From Candidatus Heimdallarchaeota archaeon (GTDB lineage: Archaea; Asgardarchaeota; Heimdallarchaeia; Hodarchaeales; Hodarchaeaceae), in contig RDOB01000002.1 of the NCBI GenBank assembly GCA_011364965.1, forward strand, positions 1 to 64,000: a stretch of DNA of 64,000 bases, in the 5' to 3' direction. The translations under genes were made by a program, and so were the position numbers. Each line of letters starts with the position of its first letter. The stretch's first letter is position 1. Under the pieces are notes generated by a model. It saw nothing but the letters and a program-made list of their open reading frames with translations. It did not search any database and was not told the DNA's origin. This document shows, piece after piece, positions 35,336 through 46,558 of the stretch.

Positions 35336-38197
35336 ATGTCTCGTTTCAACACTAAAACTTTGAGTCAGATTATCAAAACATACAGTAACACTAGAGATTT
35401 CTTAGTAAACAAAGAATCAAATATTTCTGATATAAAGATGAAAGTGCAATGTATTGACTTTTTTATGTCAGTAATTTTTTTGATTTGGAGTATGGAAAAA
35501 AACGGAGTTATAAAGAAATTATTTCTTATGTCACAATTAGAAGAATATGATCCAAATCAAAATTTAATGTCTTTTTCCTGTTTTCTTATAGATTCTATTG
35601 AGAAGCTCTTTTTAATAGCAGATTCATCTAATTATTTTACCAAAGAGGAATTTAATATTCTTAAACAAGCAGATCTTCCATTAAGTTGTTTTTATATATC
35701 CAAATCAAAGAAAACAGATGGGATTTTGTCTCAAAATATAGAAATTAATAATATTGAGGCTCTTCCTTTATTTAACCTTTTGGAGTATTTAGATTCATCA
35801 TTTGGAGCGGTCAATGAATATATTTTGGGAAAAATATTCGAATTCTTGTTATCTAAACAAGATCTGAGGAAAAAATTTGGTATCTACTATACGCCTAAGC
35901 AATTTACGGATTATATGTCAAAATTAACGATTGAAAACTATTTTATAGACCAATTAAATATCAAATTTGATATTAAATTAATAAATTTATCTAATTTCTA
36001 TGAGAAATTAGATCTAGATGTGGCAAATTGGGCAATTCATATATTGAAGACATTAAAAATCTTAGATCTGGCGTTAGGAACTGGTCAGTTCCTCATAAGT
36101 GCTATATACCAGCTTTTAGAGATCCATGAGCACGTCAGGAACTTTTACAGAGACAAAGGCTTAATTGAGGTTTTAATACAAGAACTCGAGCTTCAAAATG
36201 ATACCTTCGTTCTTGAAAATTTCCGAAATATCGAAGATGATAACTTTTTTAAGTGTTTAGTGATTAATAAGCTAATAATCCCTCGCAATTTGTATGGAGT
36301 AGACATTAATTTTATAGCTGTACAAATTGCAAAGATTAGATGCTTAATGATAATGGTAAAATTCTTTTCTTCTTCCAAAATGAGAGTTTCACTACTTGCA
36401 AAGATGAATCACAATTTAAAGCAAGGGAATGCATTATTAGGATATCTAGCTTGTCCCAATGATCGTGAAGTATCATATACTTCCTTAAATCAACTGAATT
36501 TAGATTATATAAGCCAATTTGGTATTGAAAGTATTTCGGAAAATGATTTCCCCTTATTTCACTGGTTTTACGAATTTAAGGATGTATTCATTCAAAATAG
36601 TAAATTTCAAGTGATTCTTACCAATCCTCCTTATATAGGAGAGAGTGGGAATAAAAAATTATTTCGTTTACATGCTAAGGCATTATCTGAATACTATGAA
36701 GGGAAAGCAGATCTTTGGTATTATTTCCTGCATAGAAGTATTAATTTATTGTCAGAAAATGGATATTGCACTTTTATTGCTCCTAATTACTGGATTACAG
36801 CGTCGGGAGCATCGTTATTAAGATCTAGGTTAAGTTCTGAGACAACTTTTGTTCGTTATATTAATTTTAATCAAAATTCTGTCTTTAATTCAGCACAGGG
36901 GGTTCATATTAATATTCTAACCGTTAAGAAAGGCATTAACCCTGAACAAAACTTTGAATGCACGGTTTTTAATGATGTTGTAGAAACTAAGGAATTGATT
37001 AAATCTCTCCCTGATCAACAAACATTCATACTTAAGCAGAATGAGTTACTTTTTAATGGATGGGATCCATATTTTCATTTTATCCCTAGAAAATACAGAA
37101 TTATCCTCGAATTTATTATTTCCAAATCTTATAAATTGAAGAATAAAGGATTCTACGTTAAAGAGGGTATTATTACAGGTATGAATACAATTTCGGGAAG
37201 ACAAATATCCCGCTATAATTTATCCCCCGATAAAAAGGGCATTGGAGTGTTTATATTAGATGTAAATCATCCTGAAGATGAAAAGTATATTCAATCTTTG
37301 TCAGAAATAGAAAAATCGATATTGAAACCATTTTATAAAAATTCGGATATAAAAAGATATTATTCAGCATTCAATACTTCAAGAAAGATTCAGTATCTTA
37401 ACAGAAATACCATAAACATAGTCCATTTACCTAGAGTACGTTATTTTCTTGAACAGTTTAAAGAAATCCTCAATGATTCTCTAGATAATCCCCCCTATTT
37501 AAATCGACCCCGAGATCCATTTATGTTTGTATCTCCCAAGATTATTACTCCCCAAAGAAGTAATCTTAATAGATTTGCTTATAATTCTTTAGATTGGTTT
37601 GCTGGACAGGATGTATATTATATTTTAAATGAAAAAAATGATAAAAATGAACTTAAAACTTTACTACTTATTTTAAATTCCAAACTGGCATATTACTGGT
37701 TTTATTGGATGGGAAAAAGAAAAGGGAAACAACTCGAATTATTCAGTGAACCATTGGGATATTTCCCGATTCCTGATTTGAAAGGTAATGATCTCCATAT
37801 ATTGGCTGATTATCTCTTATTTCTCAATTTACTGCATAATGAATCTGAGTCAGCTCGGATTACTAAATTATTAGCTTTTTTTAACAGGTTAGCGGAGCTG
37901 GCTGTTTTCGAGTTCTATTTTTCAGAATTATGTTATAAAAAGGGATTCAGTGAAACAAAGTATCCATTTTCATTCTATATTCAAGAAAATTTAAAAGAAT
38001 TAAATTTTGATGTTATTCTGGAAAATTTCAAAGAGAACTATGATTCAAATAGGAATTTTATTATTCTCTCAGATCAGATTGAAGTGATAGAAGAAGCTTA
38101 CTATAGTTTAAAGACTAATGAAGATATAAAATCCTCCATAAATAAAATTAATACTTTTCCAATGGTAAAAACAATTGCTAAATTTTCGAGCCTCTAA
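35336..38197 (+). CDS. Eco57I/TaqI-like gamma-class N6-adenine DNA methyltransferase with C-terminal specificity domain
   Basis: GIYYTP, ILDLALGTGQF, YGVDIN, GNAL, NPPY, ILNSKL; no recognisable nuclease motif. Confidence 0.88.
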   Translation: MSRFNTKTLSQIIKTYSNTRDFLVNKESNISDIKMKVQCIDFFMSVIFLIWSMEKNGVIKKLFLMSQLEEYDPNQNLMSFSCFLIDSIEKLFLIADSSNYFTKEEFNILKQADLPLSCFYISKSKKTDGILSQNIEINNIEALPLFNLLEYLDSSFGAVNEYILGKIFEFLLSKQDLRKKFGIYYTPKQFTDYMSKLTIENYFIDQLNIKFDIKLINLSNFYEKLDLDVANWAIHILKTLKILDLALGTGQFLISAIYQLLEIHEHVRNFYRDKGLIEVLIQELELQNDTFVLENFRNIEDDNFFKCLVINKLIIPRNLYGVDINFIAVQIAKIRCLMIMVKFFSSSKMRVSLLAKMNHNLKQGNALLGYLACPNDREVSYTSLNQLNLDYISQFGIESISENDFPLFHWFYEFKDVFIQNSKFQVILTNPPYIGESGNKKLFRLHAKALSEYYEGKADLWYYFLHRSINLLSENGYCTFIAPNYWITASGASLLRSRLSSETTFVRYINFNQNSVFNSAQGVHINILTVKKGINPEQNFECTVFNDVVETKELIKSLPDQQTFILKQNELLFNGWDPYFHFIPRKYRIILEFIISKSYKLKNKGFYVKEGIITGMNTISGRQISRYNLSPDKKGIGVFILDVNHPEDEKYIQSLSEIEKSILKPFYKNSDIKRYYSAFNTSRKIQYLNRNTINIVHLPRVRYFLEQFKEILNDSLDNPPYLNRPRDPFMFVSPKIITPQRSNLNRFAYNSLDWFAGQDVYYILNEKNDKNELKTLLLILNSKLAYYWFYWMGKRKGKQLELFSEPLGYFPIPDLKGNDLHILADYLLFLNLLHNESESARITKLLAFFNRLAELAVFEFYFSELCYKKGFSETKYPFSFYIQENLKELNFDVILENFKENYDSNRNFIILSDQIEVIEEAYYSLKTNEDIKSSINKINTFPMVKTIAKFSSL

Positions 38198-38961
38198 ACA
38201 TCTCTCTTTCCTCCTTTAAGCTGTGAAATATGATCAACTACAGATGTCAAAAATTCTCCAGCTTTCGCTTCTATACGGATATCTGCTAGCATATCTAGAT
38301 CCGTTGGGCCGGAATTAACAATAATAAAAAGTGCACCTGATCTTTGTGCAATAACAGGTATTTCTGCTGCAGGAAAAACACTCAAAGTTGACCCGATTGC
38401 AAGAATAACATCACTTCTAATTGCATGGCTTCTCGCAAGTTCCATTTCTCTTTCAGGCATGGGATCATTGAAGTTGACAACTGAAGAAATTATTCTACCT
38501 GAACAGTACGGACATTTTGGTTGATTCCCCTTTATTTTTTCAGTTCGATACCCTTTCCCATGTTCTTGATCATCCCACCCAATCTCTCCCTTTTGAAGTC
38601 GTTCATCACAATCCATACATTTCATAAGTTCAAAATTACCATGCAATTCAGCTAAAAGTTCTTGCGGGATTCCTGACTTTAAATGGAGATTATCAACATT
38701 TTGGGATATGAGATATTTTAGAATACCCATTTTGTAAAGATCCACGATTGCAAAATGAGCTGTATTTGGTTCGATTAGTTCCATAGGTTGTTTTAGAGGT
38801 TTAGGTTTCAGCCCTTTCTCACGTAATGTCCATACACCTTCTGGTCCTCTATAATCTGGCAATCCTGATTCAGTTGATATGCCAGCTCCCGTAAAGATTA
38901 CAAGATAACTAGAAGAGTTTAAAATTTTAGCAATTTTCTGGATTTCTAAATTCAAATTCAT
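38194..38961 (-). CDS. Sir2-family NAD-dependent deacylase
   Basis: GAGISTESGLPDYRG, SQNVDNLH, HGN, CxxC..CxxC, GSTLSVFPA. Confidence 0.93.
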   Translation of the reverse strand: MNLNLEIQKIAKILNSSSYLVIFTGAGISTESGLPDYRGPEGVWTLREKGLKPKPLKQPMELIEPNTAHFAIVDLYKMGILKYLISQNVDNLHLKSGIPQELLAELHGNFELMKCMDCDERLQKGEIGWDDQEHGKGYRTEKIKGNQPKCPYCSGRIISSVVNFNDPMPEREMELARSHAIRSDVILAIGSTLSVFPAAEIPVIAQRSGALFIIVNSGPTDLDMLADIRIEAKAGEFLTSVVDHISQLKGGKRDV

Positions 38962-40484: not shown

Positions 40485-41378
40485 TTAAGAATTAATAAGC
40501 TTTTGAAGTCTTTTTACATAAGTCGAATTTTCAACTTTTTCTTTAAATTCCTGAGCATTTAAAAACCACCATACGTTCCACAATGCTCTATTTTTCCATC
40601 CTAAAGTTCCCCTTAATGTCAATTGCTCATAATTCTCAATAAATGGAGGTGAGTAACATTCAAATAATCTCTGATTCAAACCCTTTCCAAATTTCTTTTT
40701 ATAGAGCGCTTCATGAATATAAACAGATCCTTCGGGTGTATAACAGGAACACATAGCTGCATTTCTCCTCCATCCAATCCAGTCAATGGAATAAAGGTGG
40801 TTAAGAAAAGCAATTTGATGATATGGGCTACCTATTCCAAATCCATGGAAAAAGCAGTCTGAGCTGCTTTTTAAGATTCCCAACCACTCTGCAATTTCAT
40901 ATACACTACCTTTCTGGTTGATTTTTAAAGCCGGGACGACTCCTCCAAGCCCAATATATTTTTCGGATTTATAGTAATTCAAATTATCCGGATAATGTAC
41001 TACAGGCAAAATATTCATAGCAAATTTTCGATTTAATAGCTCCCAATTCCTCTTAGATTTCCTCGGATTACCAATTGAATCAAGATTAACTACTATATCT
41101 TCGGAACCTAGATTAATTCTCTTGAGAAATTGAACGTATTTAGAGATAGAAATTTCAACTCCAGAATTGAAAGCCGAATAAGCACCTGAATCAACAATAA
41201 TCGAACCATCCCAAGAAAAAAATTCCTTTAAACCTGACTGGATAATTTCAGATGTCTTTTTTCTGAAATTCCAGAAAGAAAATATAATTCCGACATCCAA
41301 TTTTTTCATTTTTTCCATGATTTTGACTTCTTCTAACCAAGGATACAGTCCTGGAACAATTCCTAAGTACAACTTCAT
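40485..41378 (-). CDS. TGT/DpdA-like guanine transglycosylase paralogue A
   Basis: WDGSIIVDSGAYS, NLD, PVVH, GLGG, FHGFG, SID; no CxCxxC-H Zn site or PUA domain. Confidence 0.72.
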   Translation of the reverse strand: MKLYLGIVPGLYPWLEEVKIMEKMKKLDVGIIFSFWNFRKKTSEIIQSGLKEFFSWDGSIIVDSGAYSAFNSGVEISISKYVQFLKRINLGSEDIVVNLDSIGNPRKSKRNWELLNRKFAMNILPVVHYPDNLNYYKSEKYIGLGGVVPALKINQKGSVYEIAEWLGILKSSSDCFFHGFGIGSPYHQIAFLNHLYSIDWIGWRRNAAMCSCYTPEGSVYIHEALYKKKFGKGLNQRLFECYSPPFIENYEQLTLRGTLGWKNRALWNVWWFLNAQEFKEKVENSTYVKRLQKLINS

Positions 41379-41526
41379 TTTTATTCACAATAGTTGGTTA
41401 AAATTAATTCTAACCTAATTTCTTTGATTTGGATTTTTATTTGCAGGAAAATCCTAAGAATTCAAAAATAATTCAATATATGGTTATTTTATTCTTACTA
41501 AAAAGCTTAAAGAGGTATAATTTTCC

Positions 41527-41985
41527 ATGAATTCAAATAAAGTATTGATTATTCTTTCTTGTGGAAAGAAGAAGTCAGAAAAATTATCTCAAGGAAAACT
41601 AAAGGCCTCTCAAGCGTATATTGGGCCAATGTTTCAGGTAATAAACAAAGCGAAGAGAGAAAGCAGATGGTCTGAGGATTTTTTTTTGGGTATTATATCA
41701 GCAAAATATGGATTTCTGAGAGAGAATCAGGAAATCGAATTTTACGACAAAAAAATGTCAAAAAAAAGAGCTTATGAGTTGAGAGATCAAGTGATTAATT
41801 CAATTCAGACTTGGAATTCAGAGGAGCAGTTTTCATTGATATATATTCTCATGGGGAAGATATATTTGTCCAGTGTGGAAAAATTGAAAGATTTTATAGA
41901 TACCAAAGTAATTATAGAGCCAATGGAAGGTTTAGGAATAGCTCAAAGAAAATTGCTCACCTTTTTGAAAAATCAAAACAAATGA
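41527..41985 (+). CDS. YaaA/DUF6884-like protein
   Basis: ILSCGKKK..ASQAYIGPMF..IISAKYGFL..IEFYD..MGKIY. Confidence 0.7.
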   Translation: MNSNKVLIILSCGKKKSEKLSQGKLKASQAYIGPMFQVINKAKRESRWSEDFFLGIISAKYGFLRENQEIEFYDKKMSKKRAYELRDQVINSIQTWNSEEQFSLIYILMGKIYLSSVEKLKDFIDTKVIIEPMEGLGIAQRKLLTFLKNQNK

Positions 41986-42024
41986 AGCAATTCAGCAAAA
42001 GAAATTACATTAGAGGATTTCTAG

Positions 42025-43041
42025 ATGATCTTTGCAATAGGCACCCCAGTAAATGCACATTTTCGTCCTTGGACATATGATTGGGCGCTAAAACCTGATG
42101 CTTTGATGATTTCAGCCATTGACTTCTTATCCAGCCCAAGGACGTATAAAAAGTTAAAGAGTAAGGGAATACATGATCTTTTGGCATGGGATGGCTCCAT
42201 TATTTGTGATTCAGGTGCATTTTCTGCTTTAAATCGGAAATCTGCTGTTACCATACAGTTAGAGGATTTATATGCATTATATGAGGAAATTAATAAACAA
42301 GATCCAAATATTCTTAAAATTACTTTAGATTTTCCTGACGATAGAATTATTGAAAATTATAAGAAGCTTTATCCTTTAGAAATAGAGCCTGTTGTACCTT
42401 TCAATAAAATTGAATTGATTGATTCGATATCGAGAATAACGGATGATTTAGATTGGTTATTTATTGGACGTCTTGTTCCATTAATGAGACAAGGTGGTGA
42501 TCACATTTCCAGACTCTCTCTGATATTTGATGTTTTTCGTGAGAAACTTAAAGAGAGAGCATTTACTCACAAAGTGAAACTTTGGGCTCTTGGAGTGGGT
42601 GCTCCAAGCATTCTCCCGTTTATTCGGAGTTTAGTTGAGGGATGTGATTCTTCCCGTTGGAGAGTTACGGGATCAAATATGATACTTTTACCAGCAGGTG
42701 GAGAACGAGGTGTTGGAAATCGTACAAAATGGCGGGGTACTCATCATCGAATTGATGATCAGAATGAACGACATCTGGTGATTAAAATTCTGAAAGATCT
42801 TGATACTCTCTCTGGAGGTTTTGAGAATATTGATCATTCTTTAACATATAATCAGCAACCTAAGCTGATAAAGGGAAGTTTTGAGATAAATTTGCCATCT
42901 ATTGGAGAGCTAATTACAAAAATACGCGAACACTCTGATCTTGTGACAGTTTACGAATTAGAACTCCTGTTAAGAACTTCTGGAAATTTAAGACTCATAT
43001 TTAATTATTGGTCAGCTTTAAATTTTAGTTCAACGGATTAG
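42025..43041 (+). CDS. TGT/DpdA-like guanine transglycosylase paralogue B
   Basis: GIHDLLAWDGSIICDSGAFS, TLDFP, WALGVG, GCDSSRW; no Zn site. Confidence 0.72.
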   Translation: MIFAIGTPVNAHFRPWTYDWALKPDALMISAIDFLSSPRTYKKLKSKGIHDLLAWDGSIICDSGAFSALNRKSAVTIQLEDLYALYEEINKQDPNILKITLDFPDDRIIENYKKLYPLEIEPVVPFNKIELIDSISRITDDLDWLFIGRLVPLMRQGGDHISRLSLIFDVFREKLKERAFTHKVKLWALGVGAPSILPFIRSLVEGCDSSRWRVTGSNMILLPAGGERGVGNRTKWRGTHHRIDDQNERHLVIKILKDLDTLSGGFENIDHSLTYNQQPKLIKGSFEINLPSIGELITKIREHSDLVTVYELELLLRTSGNLRLIFNYWSALNFSSTD

Positions 43042-43050
43042 TAATGAGTA

Positions 43051-45423
43051 ATGAACAGTCATAATTTATTAATTTGTCAACCATTGAATTCTGCTTTCGC
43101 GTTTCTTACTGAGATGAAAAAATTTAACTTCAAGTTAATACTTTGGGATTATCGATTCATATTTTTTCCAACTCCAAATCTTATCATAGAATCTCGTATT
43201 GAAGCCAATAATCCTCCAAACTTTAGGTTGATGGAAAATATAGATTTATTTTTATTTGATTTTGAAGAAAATCTCTCTTATTTGAAGCAGAACCTTAAAA
43301 ATTTTGGATTTATCGCTATTTTAATCAATGGTACACTTAAATTTAAAATTAAATCGATTTTGGACAAGGTTCTAGGTATTAGCACATTCCTAAATGAAAT
43401 TCTACTCGATTCACCATATCAGTTATCACATGACTCAAATAGACAAATCTTTGAAAGAACAGATTATATATTACTATATGGGAATCCAAGTAATCAAAGA
43501 GTCAATCCTGTATATAATGACAGGTTAAGTGGAGGATATTGGCATTCTTTTGTTTCAAAAGGTCAAGGATCAGCAAAAATATTTGTAAGAGATGGAAAGA
43601 AGATTGAGATTGCACCTCCACCTGGAACACACTGGAAGTTAAAACAGGAGACAATTCTGAAGTTCTGCCAAGAAGGATTAATCCGTTTCAATTCTAGTGG
43701 AAACCCTGAATACTGGGTAAAAGAGAAAAGAGGACAGATCATCGATACTAATTGGTTAGATATTGACTCTTTTGACACCCAAGGAAATATGATATGCAAT
43801 TCGAAATTTCTATATAAAAGACTCTTCAATCTAGTCTTAAAAGAAGGTGATCAATATTTAAATATCTTCTCGTCTGAAAATACATCTATTATATTAGCAA
43901 ATTCAAATAAAAATCCCTGGGTGAAAATTTACTCATCTGAAGTTCATTTGAAACCTGAAATCAATGAATTAAAAGGAAAAGGATTAACTTTTGAAGTATA
44001 TCAAGATAATCCATTCTCTATCCCTTCTTCAAATCACCACCATAAGATTTCTTCCCCTCCCCATGAAATAAACGCGGATGAAAAGGATATAGAAAATCCT
44101 ACTTTGTCAATCCATGAGTTATATAGCTCTCAGGATCCTGAAACTGTTGATTTATCTAAAGGTAAATGGATTAACAGTCTAATATTAGGAGATTGTTTTA
44201 TTGCTTTAACTTTGATTAAGAAACTTTTTAATGATAGAATTAAGTTGATATATATCGATCCTCCATATTTTACTGGGATTAATGAGATTATCACAATTCC
44301 AATTACACCTGAGAGTCATCACTTAATCGAAAAATTTGCATATCAAAATACAATTAACTCTACAGAACCGATTCAATTTTTTAAAAAATGGTTCAAAGTA
44401 AGATTGGATAAAATGAAAGAGCTCTTAGCGAATGATGGGCATATATTTGTTAGATATGACTATCATTTCGGGCATTATGCCAAATTAGTTCTTGATGAGG
44501 TGTTTGGGGTAGAAAATTTTGTCATTGAGTTATTTGTTAGGAGAATGAAGAAAAACCTCTCAAAGAAACAAGAGTACCATCAAAATCATTTAATTGTTCA
44601 TACTGATTCTCTATTTATCTATCGTAAGTCTAAAGATGCAGTATTAGATTTGAGAAAAATTACTAAAAGACATAAAAATGCTCAAGATATCGCTGAAAGA
44701 GAATTACATAATGATAATCTATGGATTGACATTACTGGATATGAAAAAGTGAAAAAAAGTCTCTATCCAACAGAGAATTCAGAAGTACTACTCAAGAGAC
44801 TTATTGAGATATCAACTGATCCTGGAGATATAATAGCTGACTTTTTTAGTGGATCTGGTACTACATTAGCTGTATCAGAAAAGTTAAAACGAAAATGGAT
44901 AGGTATTGACATTGGCTTGATGTCTATCAACGAAACAAAAAGAAGAATATTGAATCTACCGAATTTTCAGCCATTTGAGATATCAAGAGTAGTAGATAAA
45001 AAGAGGAGTTACAATATTGATTCAAGCGTTCCTGAATTTTTTCTTGGGATAGGAGGCAAAAAAAGGTTAGAAATTGATAAAAATGGGTTAGGGGTAACAA
45101 TAGAACTCCAACGGGATTATTCTGGTATTACTTTATATATAGTTCATTTTTCATCCCAGAAGATAGAGAATTTTCAACCTCTTACCACATTTCGATATTA
45201 TATTGACACTTGGGTACTTGATTGGTCTTATAATGGCTTTCAAATTAGGAGCACTTGGTTCTCGACTAGAAAAACAAAGGGGAAAAGGTTAATAAAACCT
45301 GTTGAAACATTTTGCAGATTTGAAGTTTTTAATAGAACTAAAATAGATTTAGCTTTGCTAATAACCGATATTTTTGGATTGGAATTAAATTATAAGTTTA
45401 AAATTATTTTGTTAAAACACTGA
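43051..45423 (+). CDS. Tandem beta-class (Mod-like) amino-DNA methyltransferase: inactive N-copy + active C-copy
   Basis: C-copy IYIDPPY and DFFSGSGTT; N-copy degenerate equivalents ILWDYRF and NIFSSENTS. Confidence 0.85.
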   Translation: MNSHNLLICQPLNSAFAFLTEMKKFNFKLILWDYRFIFFPTPNLIIESRIEANNPPNFRLMENIDLFLFDFEENLSYLKQNLKNFGFIAILINGTLKFKIKSILDKVLGISTFLNEILLDSPYQLSHDSNRQIFERTDYILLYGNPSNQRVNPVYNDRLSGGYWHSFVSKGQGSAKIFVRDGKKIEIAPPPGTHWKLKQETILKFCQEGLIRFNSSGNPEYWVKEKRGQIIDTNWLDIDSFDTQGNMICNSKFLYKRLFNLVLKEGDQYLNIFSSENTSIILANSNKNPWVKIYSSEVHLKPEINELKGKGLTFEVYQDNPFSIPSSNHHHKISSPPHEINADEKDIENPTLSIHELYSSQDPETVDLSKGKWINSLILGDCFIALTLIKKLFNDRIKLIYIDPPYFTGINEIITIPITPESHHLIEKFAYQNTINSTEPIQFFKKWFKVRLDKMKELLANDGHIFVRYDYHFGHYAKLVLDEVFGVENFVIELFVRRMKKNLSKKQEYHQNHLIVHTDSLFIYRKSKDAVLDLRKITKRHKNAQDIAERELHNDNLWIDITGYEKVKKSLYPTENSEVLLKRLIEISTDPGDIIADFFSGSGTTLAVSEKLKRKWIGIDIGLMSINETKRRILNLPNFQPFEISRVVDKKRSYNIDSSVPEFFLGIGGKKRLEIDKNGLGVTIELQRDYSGITLYIVHFSSQKIENFQPLTTFRYYIDTWVLDWSYNGFQIRSTWFSTRKTKGKRLIKPVETFCRFEVFNRTKIDLALLITDIFGLELNYKFKIILLKH

Positions 45424-45490
45424 TGTAATGATATTTCAGGGAAGTAGAAATAGAAAGTTGTTTAATGGATTTCATACAAAGGTGAGCGAT

Positions 45491-45913
45491 ATGACAGTTT
45501 ATCAATCTAAAATTCAATTAAAAGAGACTTTTGAGACAGAAATTGTGAATATTACAACTAACATACAACAAGAAGTTGATAAATCCGGCATCAAGAATGG
45601 CATAGCCACAATTTTTAATGTAGGATCGACTGGAGGTATTTTAACTTTGGAATATGAACCAGGATTGTTAAAAGATATTCCTGCATATTTAGAACGTACG
45701 ATTCCGAAAAGTAGCATAAAATATGAACATGAGAAAACTTGGCATGATGACAATGGTCATTCTCATGTACGAGCATCAATTATCGGTCCCTCTTTAACTG
45801 TACCAATAACACAGGGAAAATTGATTCATGGAACATGGCAACAAGTAGCATTTATGGAATTAGATACCCGTCCTCGTCGAAGAGGGTTACATATTACTAT
45901 TATTGGAGAATGA
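45491..45913 (+). CDS. YjbQ/UPF0047 family protein
   Basis: GSTGG, EYEPGL, YEH, NGHSH, GTWQ; ATG 45491 behind GGTGA. Confidence 0.9.
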   Translation: MTVYQSKIQLKETFETEIVNITTNIQQEVDKSGIKNGIATIFNVGSTGGILTLEYEPGLLKDIPAYLERTIPKSSIKYEHEKTWHDDNGHSHVRASIIGPSLTVPITQGKLIHGTWQQVAFMELDTRPRRRGLHITIIGE

Positions 45914-46108: not shown

Positions 46109-46558
46109 TTGACAAGTGCATTCGAGGAAGCATATAGTTATCTAAATAGCTCAATTCGTACCTATGTTAATGCAACCTCTACTATAGATAAATTATTTGC
46201 AATTAAACTTATAGTTCTTTGTATGATAGTTGCAACTGACGCTCTTATGGAAAGCGTCGAAAAAACTACAGACACCCCATTTCATGGACATCTCGAAGAA
46301 TCCAGCTTTTTCCTCCCTATTGCAGCATACGAACAAAGGATGGCTGATCTGAGTCATCTTGAGGATACTGGTATTATTCCTGAGAAATATCAATTTTCAC
46401 GACGCTTGAGAAGAGCTTTAGACTTGTTGAAAGTTGCGTATGGAAATTATGGTCTTCGTTCCTTATTAGCAATAAACATTAAGGAGTTTATTAATGATTC
46501 ACAGTTTTTTGTACTTGATATCGAGATTCTTGTAGAGTCTCTAACTCAGGACAATTAA
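46109..46558 (+). CDS. Hypothetical helical protein, possibly HEPN/PaREP1-fold
   Basis: All-helical 149 aa; weak pattern resemblance only. Confidence 0.5.
   Translation: MTSAFEEAYSYLNSSIRTYVNATSTIDKLFAIKLIVLCMIVATDALMESVEKTTDTPFHGHLEESSFFLPIAAYEQRMADLSHLEDTGIIPEKYQFSRRLRRALDLLKVAYGNYGLRSLLAINIKEFINDSQFFVLDIEILVESLTQDN

Follow-up and report, generated by a model that had tools for sequence, protein, structure and literature searches.

A conserved chromosomal gene cluster of the Asgard order Hodarchaeales as a putative DpdA-type DNA base-exchange module coupled to a methyltransferase

To our knowledge, all known 7-deazaguanine modifications of DNA belong to phages or to patchily distributed bacterial and haloarchaeal defence islands that carry nucleases. 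Here we describe a gene cluster from an Asgard archaeon, a member of the lineage understood as the archaea placed closest to eukaryotes. It lies in a window of 64,000 nucleotides, the whole stretch of DNA that was analysed, at positions 1 to 64,000 of contig RDOB01000002.1 of Candidatus Heimdallarchaeota archaeon (assembly GCA_011364965.1; order Hodarchaeales). The cluster encodes two proteins that resemble DpdA, a DNA base-exchange enzyme with the fold of tRNA-guanine transglycosylase (TGT), which we call A and B; a small DUF6884 protein, Y; a DNA methyltransferase (MTase); and a YjbQ/UPF0047 protein. We consider the chances somewhat better than even that the cluster is a Hodarchaeales-specific, chromosomal and vertically inherited module in which DpdA-type enzymes exchange DNA bases for salvaged preQ0, a 7-deazaguanine precursor, with the inserted base finished by a miniature DpdC-like protein and the whole process coupled to the MTase.

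The closest described systems differ in their setting. In bacterial Dpd, as known from Salmonella Montevideo (PDB 7ui4; PMC10164549), a TGT-fold insertase with three active-site aspartates has a DUF6884-domain partner, and modification is proposed to follow replication on the cell's own DNA, as it would here. Viral DpdA proteins of the DpdA1/DpdA2 type, from Acinetobacter phage HD01, mycobacteriophage, Pseudomonas phage and a Sulfolobus virus, form the same TIM barrel of about 300 amino acids (aa) without a zinc site or PUA domain and have in common with the protein described here the motif series DSGA[YF]SA, LD, LP..H, GG(V/M)V, HGFG and (C/I)D(S/W)..W; in phage HD01, too, a DUF6884 gene is a neighbour. 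BRIGADE, described computationally and in halophilic archaea only, is likewise an archaeal gene set predicted to mark its own DNA with a 7-deazaguanine derivative, and it combines YprA-family helicases, PLD or PD-(D/E)XK nucleases and a deazaguanine biosynthesis cluster (bioRxiv 10.1101/2025.09.15.676423). Finally, the archaeal tRNA enzymes arcTGT (TgtA) and ArcS share catalytic motifs with A and B and the same predicted base, preQ0.

By analogy, the Hodarchaeales module would work like the viral DpdA pathways joined to the DpdA/DpdC half of bacterial Dpd. Unlike the viral pathways, it is cellular, chromosomal and vertically inherited, it holds two DpdA subfamilies side by side with no queCDE or folE genes nearby, and a tandem-duplicated MTase and YjbQ accompany it. 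Compared with bacterial Dpd, it has neither DpdB nor DpdD-K, is no mobile island and would rely on salvage. The helicases, nucleases and biosynthesis cluster of BRIGADE are absent from it.

A (40485-41378, minus strand, 297 aa) is predicted to be a compact, phage-type DpdA-like guanine transglycosylase, and B (42025-43041, plus strand, 338 aa) is a second, divergent protein of the DpdA/TGT fold from a subfamily other than A's. Their translations have in common the motif WDGSII-x-DSGA[YF]SA-x-N, which reads FSWDGSIIVDSGAYSAFN in A and LAWDGSIICDSGAFSALN in B. The similarity between the two (BLASTP 2e-08; hhalign probability 98.3%, E 2e-14, over 199 columns between profiles of the two families, made from 28 and 29 orthologues) is evidently not chance. 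The predicted structure of A (predicted local distance difference test, pLDDT, 93.4) matches Pyrococcus horikoshii arcTGT 1iq8 with Z 24.9 (rmsd, the root-mean-square deviation, 2.6 Å, 272 aa) and the DNA preQ0 insertase DpdA 7ui4 with Z 20.9, and that of B (pLDDT 90.7) matches the same structures with Z 19.9 (rmsd 3.1 Å, 259 aa) and Z 17.9. Both are confidently modelled as TGT-type (beta/alpha)8 TIM barrels, the fold of the superfamily, which agrees with the TGT relationship proposed from the letters of the sequence in the original prediction. The open reading frame (ORF) positions given there, the motif common to A and B, the 9 bp that separate B from the MTase gene and the missing zinc and PUA parts were likewise borne out by the ORF list and translations. 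The zinc site CxCxxC...H is conserved in neither family, B having no invariant cysteine and A a variable CxC remnant, and both proteins consist of the barrel and a few helices, without a PUA domain or any other tRNA-binding domain at the C-terminus.

Three active-site aspartates, placed against TGT and arcTGT through HMMER alignments, are invariant in both families: D63, D100 and D199 in A, and D62, D102 and D208 in B. In the S. Montevideo DpdA the active-site trio is D95, D130 and D256, which serve in turn as general acid/base, reader of the base edge and nucleophile. The invariant set of A also includes Y67, H128 and G145-G146. The residues that define the S. Montevideo DpdA are D95, D130, H181, G206-G207, D256 and the stacking F99 (PMC10164549), and D63, D100, H128, G145-G146, D199 and Y67 of A appear to correspond to these by motif order, a pairing that runs through the TGT and arcTGT alignments and not through a direct alignment to DpdA. 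B keeps, besides its aspartates, invariant GRLVPLM and DSxRWR stretches, together with F66 and an arcTGT-like G-x-(L/V)VP motif.

Judged by sequence, A is a DpdA-type protein that belongs with the viral DpdAs, as had been proposed. It matches the viral DpdA family phrog_887 at 5e-26 (92.7 bits, residues 17-283), whereas its match to the arcTGT model TIGR00432 reaches 26.8 bits (1.7e-6) against a cut-off of 350. B scores 20.7 bits (1.2e-4) against TIGR00432 and 0.0061 against phrog_887. Pfam TGT matches are weak and below the cut-offs for both (A 0.004, B 0.06), and Pfam DUF6610, the DpdA4 family, matches neither. A tblastn search with A found 128 phage and archaeal-virus records, among them viruses of Mycobacterium, Pseudomonas, Rhizobium, Vibrio, Cellulophaga and Sulfolobus; among viral structures its top matches are compact proteins, about 300 aa long, that carry the annotation queuine tRNA-ribosyltransferase, and with the DpdA of Acinetobacter phage HD01 it shares 25% identity (E 5e-12). 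A quick maximum-likelihood tree built from 68 compact relatives places A (support 100) with the phage HD01 DpdA (99) and B (support 100) with a metagenomic protein (98), in another set of compact DpdA-like proteins; the tree is effectively unrooted, with a very long arcTGT branch, and we draw no root or donor from it. Since A and B fall in separate groups, they appear to represent different DpdA subfamilies and not a recent duplication. The description of the two as DpdA-like paralogues therefore stands as to their similarity, common TGT fold and retained catalytic aspartates, but they are not close paralogues.

Between A and B lies Y (41527-41985, plus strand, 152 aa), a stand-alone YaaA-related protein of the DUF6884 family with a DpdC-type domain. 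It matches PF21818 (DUF6884) at 1.5e-13 with 51.5 bits, above the cut-off of 30, and the stand-alone candidate family PDC-M57A of PADLOC at 1e-13, while its match to YaaA is weak, in line with the YaaA/DUF6884-like gene that had been noticed at this position. The PADLOC DpdC model matches weakly (E 0.0034, 66 of 312 profile positions), Y being under half the length of that model. Pfam curators give the motifs of DUF6884 as CxxxK and (L/I)SAxxG (PMC11701544), and Y keeps CxxxK (C12, K16) and SAxYG (S58, A59, Y61, G62) across 61 orthologues. DUF6884 has been listed as a dpdC domain in a Pfam-based genome-mining preprint. The sole phage homologue of Y, HD01_00030 (152 aa, 32% identity, 3.7e-13 to the Y family profile), is encoded directly upstream of queE-queC-queD-folE-dpdA in Acinetobacter phage HD01. 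Because DUF6884 is reported as a dpdC domain and the phage homologue sits in this preQ0/DpdA cluster, Y is apparently linked to the 7-deazaguanine pathway, which favours the proposal that it is a miniature DpdC.

The MTase gene (43051-45423, plus strand, 790 aa) follows B after 9 bp and is itself followed after 4 bp by the YjbQ gene. The original prediction of a DNA MTase behind B was correct (PF01555, 142.5 bits), but the protein is a tandem duplicate within a single chain, whose N-terminal and C-terminal halves, aligned from 17 orthologues, match each other with an hhalign probability of 99.0% (E 4.8e-18). The C-terminal half (44161-45423), an active-looking beta-class N6-adenine/N4-cytosine DNA MTase with a C-terminal extension, matches PF01555 at 2.5e-41 over residues 397-623 and has invariant IDPPY and FSGSGTT motifs, DPPY preceding FxGxG in the circularly permuted order that marks the beta class. 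The N-terminal half (43051-44013, about aa 1-321) is a copy of the same fold with DYRF in place of DPPY and SSENTS in place of SGSGTT; with both the DPPY and the FxGxG S-adenosylmethionine-binding motifs gone, this copy is predicted to be dead. PADLOC models of type II and type III MTases match the protein at 5.5e-53 at best. A homology to DpdM, the phage dPreQ1 methylase, was rejected, as DpdM belongs to DUF3109 and not to PF01555. The dead copy also contains an insert of about 80 aa (about residues 160-237) that includes SGGYWHSFVSKGQG and PPGTHWKLKQ and is very strongly conserved throughout the order. Such conservation points to a fixed target, in contrast to the specificity domains of restriction-modification methyltransferases, which vary.

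The YjbQ/UPF0047 protein (45428-45913, plus strand; PF01894 6e-33, TIGR00149 1e-30) is a conserved member of the cluster, with an orthologue behind the MTase in every locus that has sufficient flank. Our search of the YjbQ literature found no functional lead, and its fixed place here is a possible lead to the function of the family. Beyond it, between YjbQ and the TFIIB gene that adjoins the cluster, a conserved hypothetical protein of 149 aa (46109-46558, plus strand) has no Pfam, PADLOC or Atlas match; its orthologues, at 53-68% identity, occupy this place in 17 loci.

In Hodarchaeales the cluster is nearly universal, present as a single copy and inherited vertically. B is present once in each of 23 of the 24 genomes of the order and A has orthologues in 19 of them, whereas the sample of about 280 other Asgard genomes gave no orthologues, its DpdA-like proteins being more distant and 375-410 aa long. 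All homologues of A, B and Y come from metagenome-assembled genomes labelled Heimdall or Hodarchaeales, at 44-69% identity, and the B profile found 114 relatives among 1.84 billion cluster representatives. Across the 22 loci fetched for comparison, about 20 Hodarchaeales loci repeat the order A / Y-B-MTase-YjbQ, so that the genes do co-occur elsewhere. Y stands directly upstream of B, with a gap of a few bases or an overlap, in all 20 loci with a readable upstream flank (20/20); the MTase, YjbQ, the 149-aa protein and TFIIB follow B, and A lies upstream in divergent orientation in the majority of loci. One clade of Hodarchaeales has a DUF362 gene between A and Y and an MFS transporter gene between B and the MTase (for example L010, 6548-7468 and 9111-10409; also L011, L015, L016 and L031). 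These were rejected as core parts and are treated as clade-specific insertions, since neither has an orthologue in the present genome; the inserted transporter could be a clade-specific precursor importer.

No DpdD-K gene, helicase or PLD nuclease was found among the neighbours of the cluster in Pfam and PADLOC scans, which are instead the MTase, YjbQ, the hypothetical protein, TFIIB, helix-turn-helix (HTH) proteins, a SIR2 protein and a type IIG-like MTase. For DpdB (the DndB/ParB-like ATPase, PF14072) we found no match in this 87% complete genome or in the syntenic loci. Both absences are as had been proposed for a minimal Dpd-like module. The absence of a nuclease partner makes a housekeeping or epigenetic mark, or passive protection, likelier than restriction-modification defence, and, taken with the missing DpdB and the vertical inheritance, it speaks more for a housekeeping mark than for a defence island. 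The anti-viral role that had also been suggested is disfavoured by the same features: a single-copy, vertical and near-universal cluster without a nuclease.

The supply of precursor points in a direction other than the one first assumed. The original prediction relied on archaea making preQ0 for archaeosine, yet profile searches found neither QueC nor QueE in this genome. Absences from a single genome of this completeness are soft, and it is the order-wide tallies that carry the argument: QueC is above cut-off in 1 of the 24 Hodarchaeales genomes. Candidates for both enzymes were set aside, the weak QueC matches being a ThiI-like PP-loop protein and other PP-loop ATPases, and the two radical-SAM matches to QueE being NrdG and a generic radical-SAM protein. 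In place of synthesis, an importer of the YhhQ/Vut_1 family, described as a specific preQ0 transporter (Hutinet et al.), is encoded on the same contig (G000:C9:416847-417395, 120 bits) and in 20 of the 24 genomes of the order. A canonical arcTGT of 648 aa with CxCxxC (G000:C12:113461-114774, 499 bits) is present as well, as is an ArcS of 612 aa (320 bits), and arcTGT occurs in 23 of the 24. With QueC in 1/24 genomes and no QueE here, and with arcTGT so widespread and YhhQ so often retained, the Hodarchaeales look like preQ0 auxotrophs that salvage the base. QueT (PF06177) has no match in the genome; nor does Q_salvage (PF10343), for which the control matched nowhere either. The sole Hodarchaeales genome with QueC has no Vut_1 match. 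We also observed, within 2.5 kb of one another (G000:C3:55990-58499; L006, L007), genes for a stand-alone PP-loop ATPase of 232 aa that resembles ThiI, for a protein like GcvH and for one like QueD/PTPS; they might be remnants or provide another pterin/deazapurine route.

The genes of the nearest relatives of B outside the order stand in deazaguanine contexts, beside QueC, beside Vut_1/YhhQ and DUF5591, or beside DUF5591, NurA/HerA and an integrase; a further setting is beside another TGT gene, BrxC-like ATPases and a PLD nuclease. DUF5591 is the core of ArcS2, which makes 2'-deoxyarchaeosine (dG+) in phage DNA (PMC10516641). Other Asgard DpdA-like genes adjoin small N6_N4 DNA MTases, AIPR proteins and PLD or PD-(D/E)XK nucleases, and one of the proteins matches the PADLOC DpdA model at 4e-7.

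Taken together, these observations can be arranged into a tentative pathway for DNA base exchange, in which we infer that DNA is the substrate, which base is inserted, what reaction Y performs and that the genes are coupled in an operon. Since the lineage is without QueC and QueE, preQ0 would be taken up through the YhhQ-type transporter. A and B would each use the double displacement of TGT, one aspartate acting as general acid/base and another as nucleophile through a covalent enzyme-DNA intermediate, and would exchange chosen guanines of the organism's own DNA for the deazaguanine. Y, with its conserved cysteine and lysine, would then finish the inserted base, a model for which is the conversion of nitrile to amide, from dPreQ0 to 2'-deoxy-7-amido-7-deazaguanosine (dADG). 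The co-transcribed, pseudo-dimeric beta-class MTase would add an N6-adenine or N4-cytosine methyl mark, and its dead copy would probably supply target recognition.

Several points weigh against this pathway. Neither the cluster nor the genome holds a deazaguanine synthesis gene, and the importer is 350 kb away. The PADLOC model of bacterial DpdA matches neither A nor B, and an assignment of the two to bacterial DpdA was set aside on this ground. Both structural models fit the catalytic domain of arcTGT slightly better than they fit bacterial DpdA, and B has Pro-Phe where A has its histidine, so that the base-edge His/Gln of DpdA and TGT is absent from it. Vertical inheritance across the whole order is the pattern of RNA-modification housekeeping genes and is unlike that of known Dpd islands.

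Some of these points would be expected if A and B exchanged bases in RNA, placing salvaged deazaguanine at extra tRNA or rRNA positions, with Y finishing the base on RNA and the MTase either unrelated or acting on RNA. A single-copy, vertical and near-universal cluster beside TFIIB resembles the genes that modify the translation apparatus, the arcTGT catalytic domain is the top structural match of both models, and arcTGT-like motifs such as (V/L)VP(L/A) are retained. We nevertheless regard this as unlikely. A and B are without the zinc site and the C-terminal tRNA-binding domains of arcTGT (C1-C3 and PUA), and A scores 92.7 bits to the DNA-acting DpdA of phages as against 26.8 bits to arcTGT. 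The genome already has a full arcTGT and ArcS, so A and B are not the tRNA enzyme; neither is the sole TGT of the genome, and both fall far below the TIGR00432 cut-off, which goes against a grouping with tRNA TGTs. PF01555 is moreover a family of DNA amino-methyltransferases, and the related Asgard genes adjoin DNA MTases and nucleases.

It is also conceivable, if quite improbable, that A and B, the TGT-fold pair, place some other purine analogue in DNA, or remove a base other than a 7-deazaguanine, and that Y works on the base in question. The lineage seems unable to make preQ0 or 7-carboxy-7-deazaguanine (CDG), B is altered at the base-edge position (Pro/Phe for His/Gln), the chemistry of the broad DUF6884 family is unproven (PMC11701544), and YjbQ, whose function is unsettled, is fixed in the cluster. 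All characterised members of the TGT/DpdA superfamily, on the other hand, handle guanine and 7-deazaguanines, and the aspartate triad that reads a guanine-type edge is invariant in both families. The preQ0 importer of the YhhQ type is kept in 20/24 genomes, and relatives of B and Y adjoin QueC, YhhQ, ArcS2-core and queCDE genes, all of which argues for a deazaguanine as the base.

Very unlikely is a role in repair or against viruses, in which A and/or B would excise damaged or virus-type modified guanines through a covalent aspartate intermediate and Y would handle the lesion. In its favour, the DUF6884 protein YfjM of Bacillus subtilis was pulled down on abasic and RNA-base lesions and has been put forward as a repair factor (PMC11701544), one related locus has an HhH-GPD glycosylase nearby, and variable restriction-modification-type genes flank the cluster on its left (type IIG-like here, a type II MTase in relatives). 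Against it, the cluster holds no conserved abasic-site endonuclease or lyase, the nearest characterised relatives insert bases and do not excise them, and the co-retained precursor importer argues for insertion.

The left flank, which varies between loci and carries a type II MTase in relatives, consists in the window of a type IIG-like methylase, a SIR2 protein and two HTH proteins, and the GC composition shows no island-like shift at the cluster. The methylase, of the Eco57I/MmeI type (35336-38197, 953 aa), has a TaqI_C specificity domain and matches only the middle and C-terminal parts of type IIG models; it may be without a nuclease domain. Its homologues lie directly upstream of A in at least 8 related loci. 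The SIR2-family protein (38194-38961, 255 aa), between this gene and the cluster, keeps its position in two related loci (L022, L027).

Two further arrangements were seen elsewhere. In uncultured archaeal contigs (L058, 7042-9721; L063, 6448-7987), a compact DpdA-like gene stands beside Vut_1 and/or DUF5591, with NurA, HerA (DUF87), a 1413-aa protein, DUF6364 and an integrase alongside, and these contigs are candidates for a dG+-type modification-restriction island. Another Heimdall-class genome (L043, G108:C13, 4575-12537) has two adjacent DpdA-like genes, of 392 and 389 aa, beside a 304-aa N6_N4 MTase, an AIPR protein and a PLD/NgoFVII-type nuclease, and this is a defence-island version of the theme of twin DpdA genes with an MTase. 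The neighbours of an A-like protein, P0220, proved unrelated to B or Y. Our literature search found no link between Asgard or Heimdall archaea and DpdA or deazaguanine.

In contrast to the phage systems and the nuclease-bearing islands, an enzyme of this type is here fixed across an Asgard order, as two distant subfamilies, with the nuclease lost and an orphan-like tandem MTase joined to it, in a lineage that has also lost precursor synthesis and kept the importer. If the proposed DNA base exchange is correct, this would be the first case in cellular life of a deazaguanine serving as a chromosomal mark that is stable and inherited, and one dependent on salvage from the community. The mark would affect the sequencing and assembly of Asgard metagenomes, and a function would follow for the DUF6884 mini-proteins and possibly for YjbQ/UPF0047. 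A bolder version, which we consider doubtful, is that the whole lineage carries a non-defensive hypermodified guanine such as dADG, put in place by the two different DpdA-type enzymes from an imported precursor of environmental origin and functionally coupled to the single-chain MTase, whose dead copy reads the deazaguanine site. Were this the case, the Hodarchaeales would have a housekeeping epigenetic layer of a "fifth and sixth base" that depends on a micronutrient, as eukaryotes depend on queuine.

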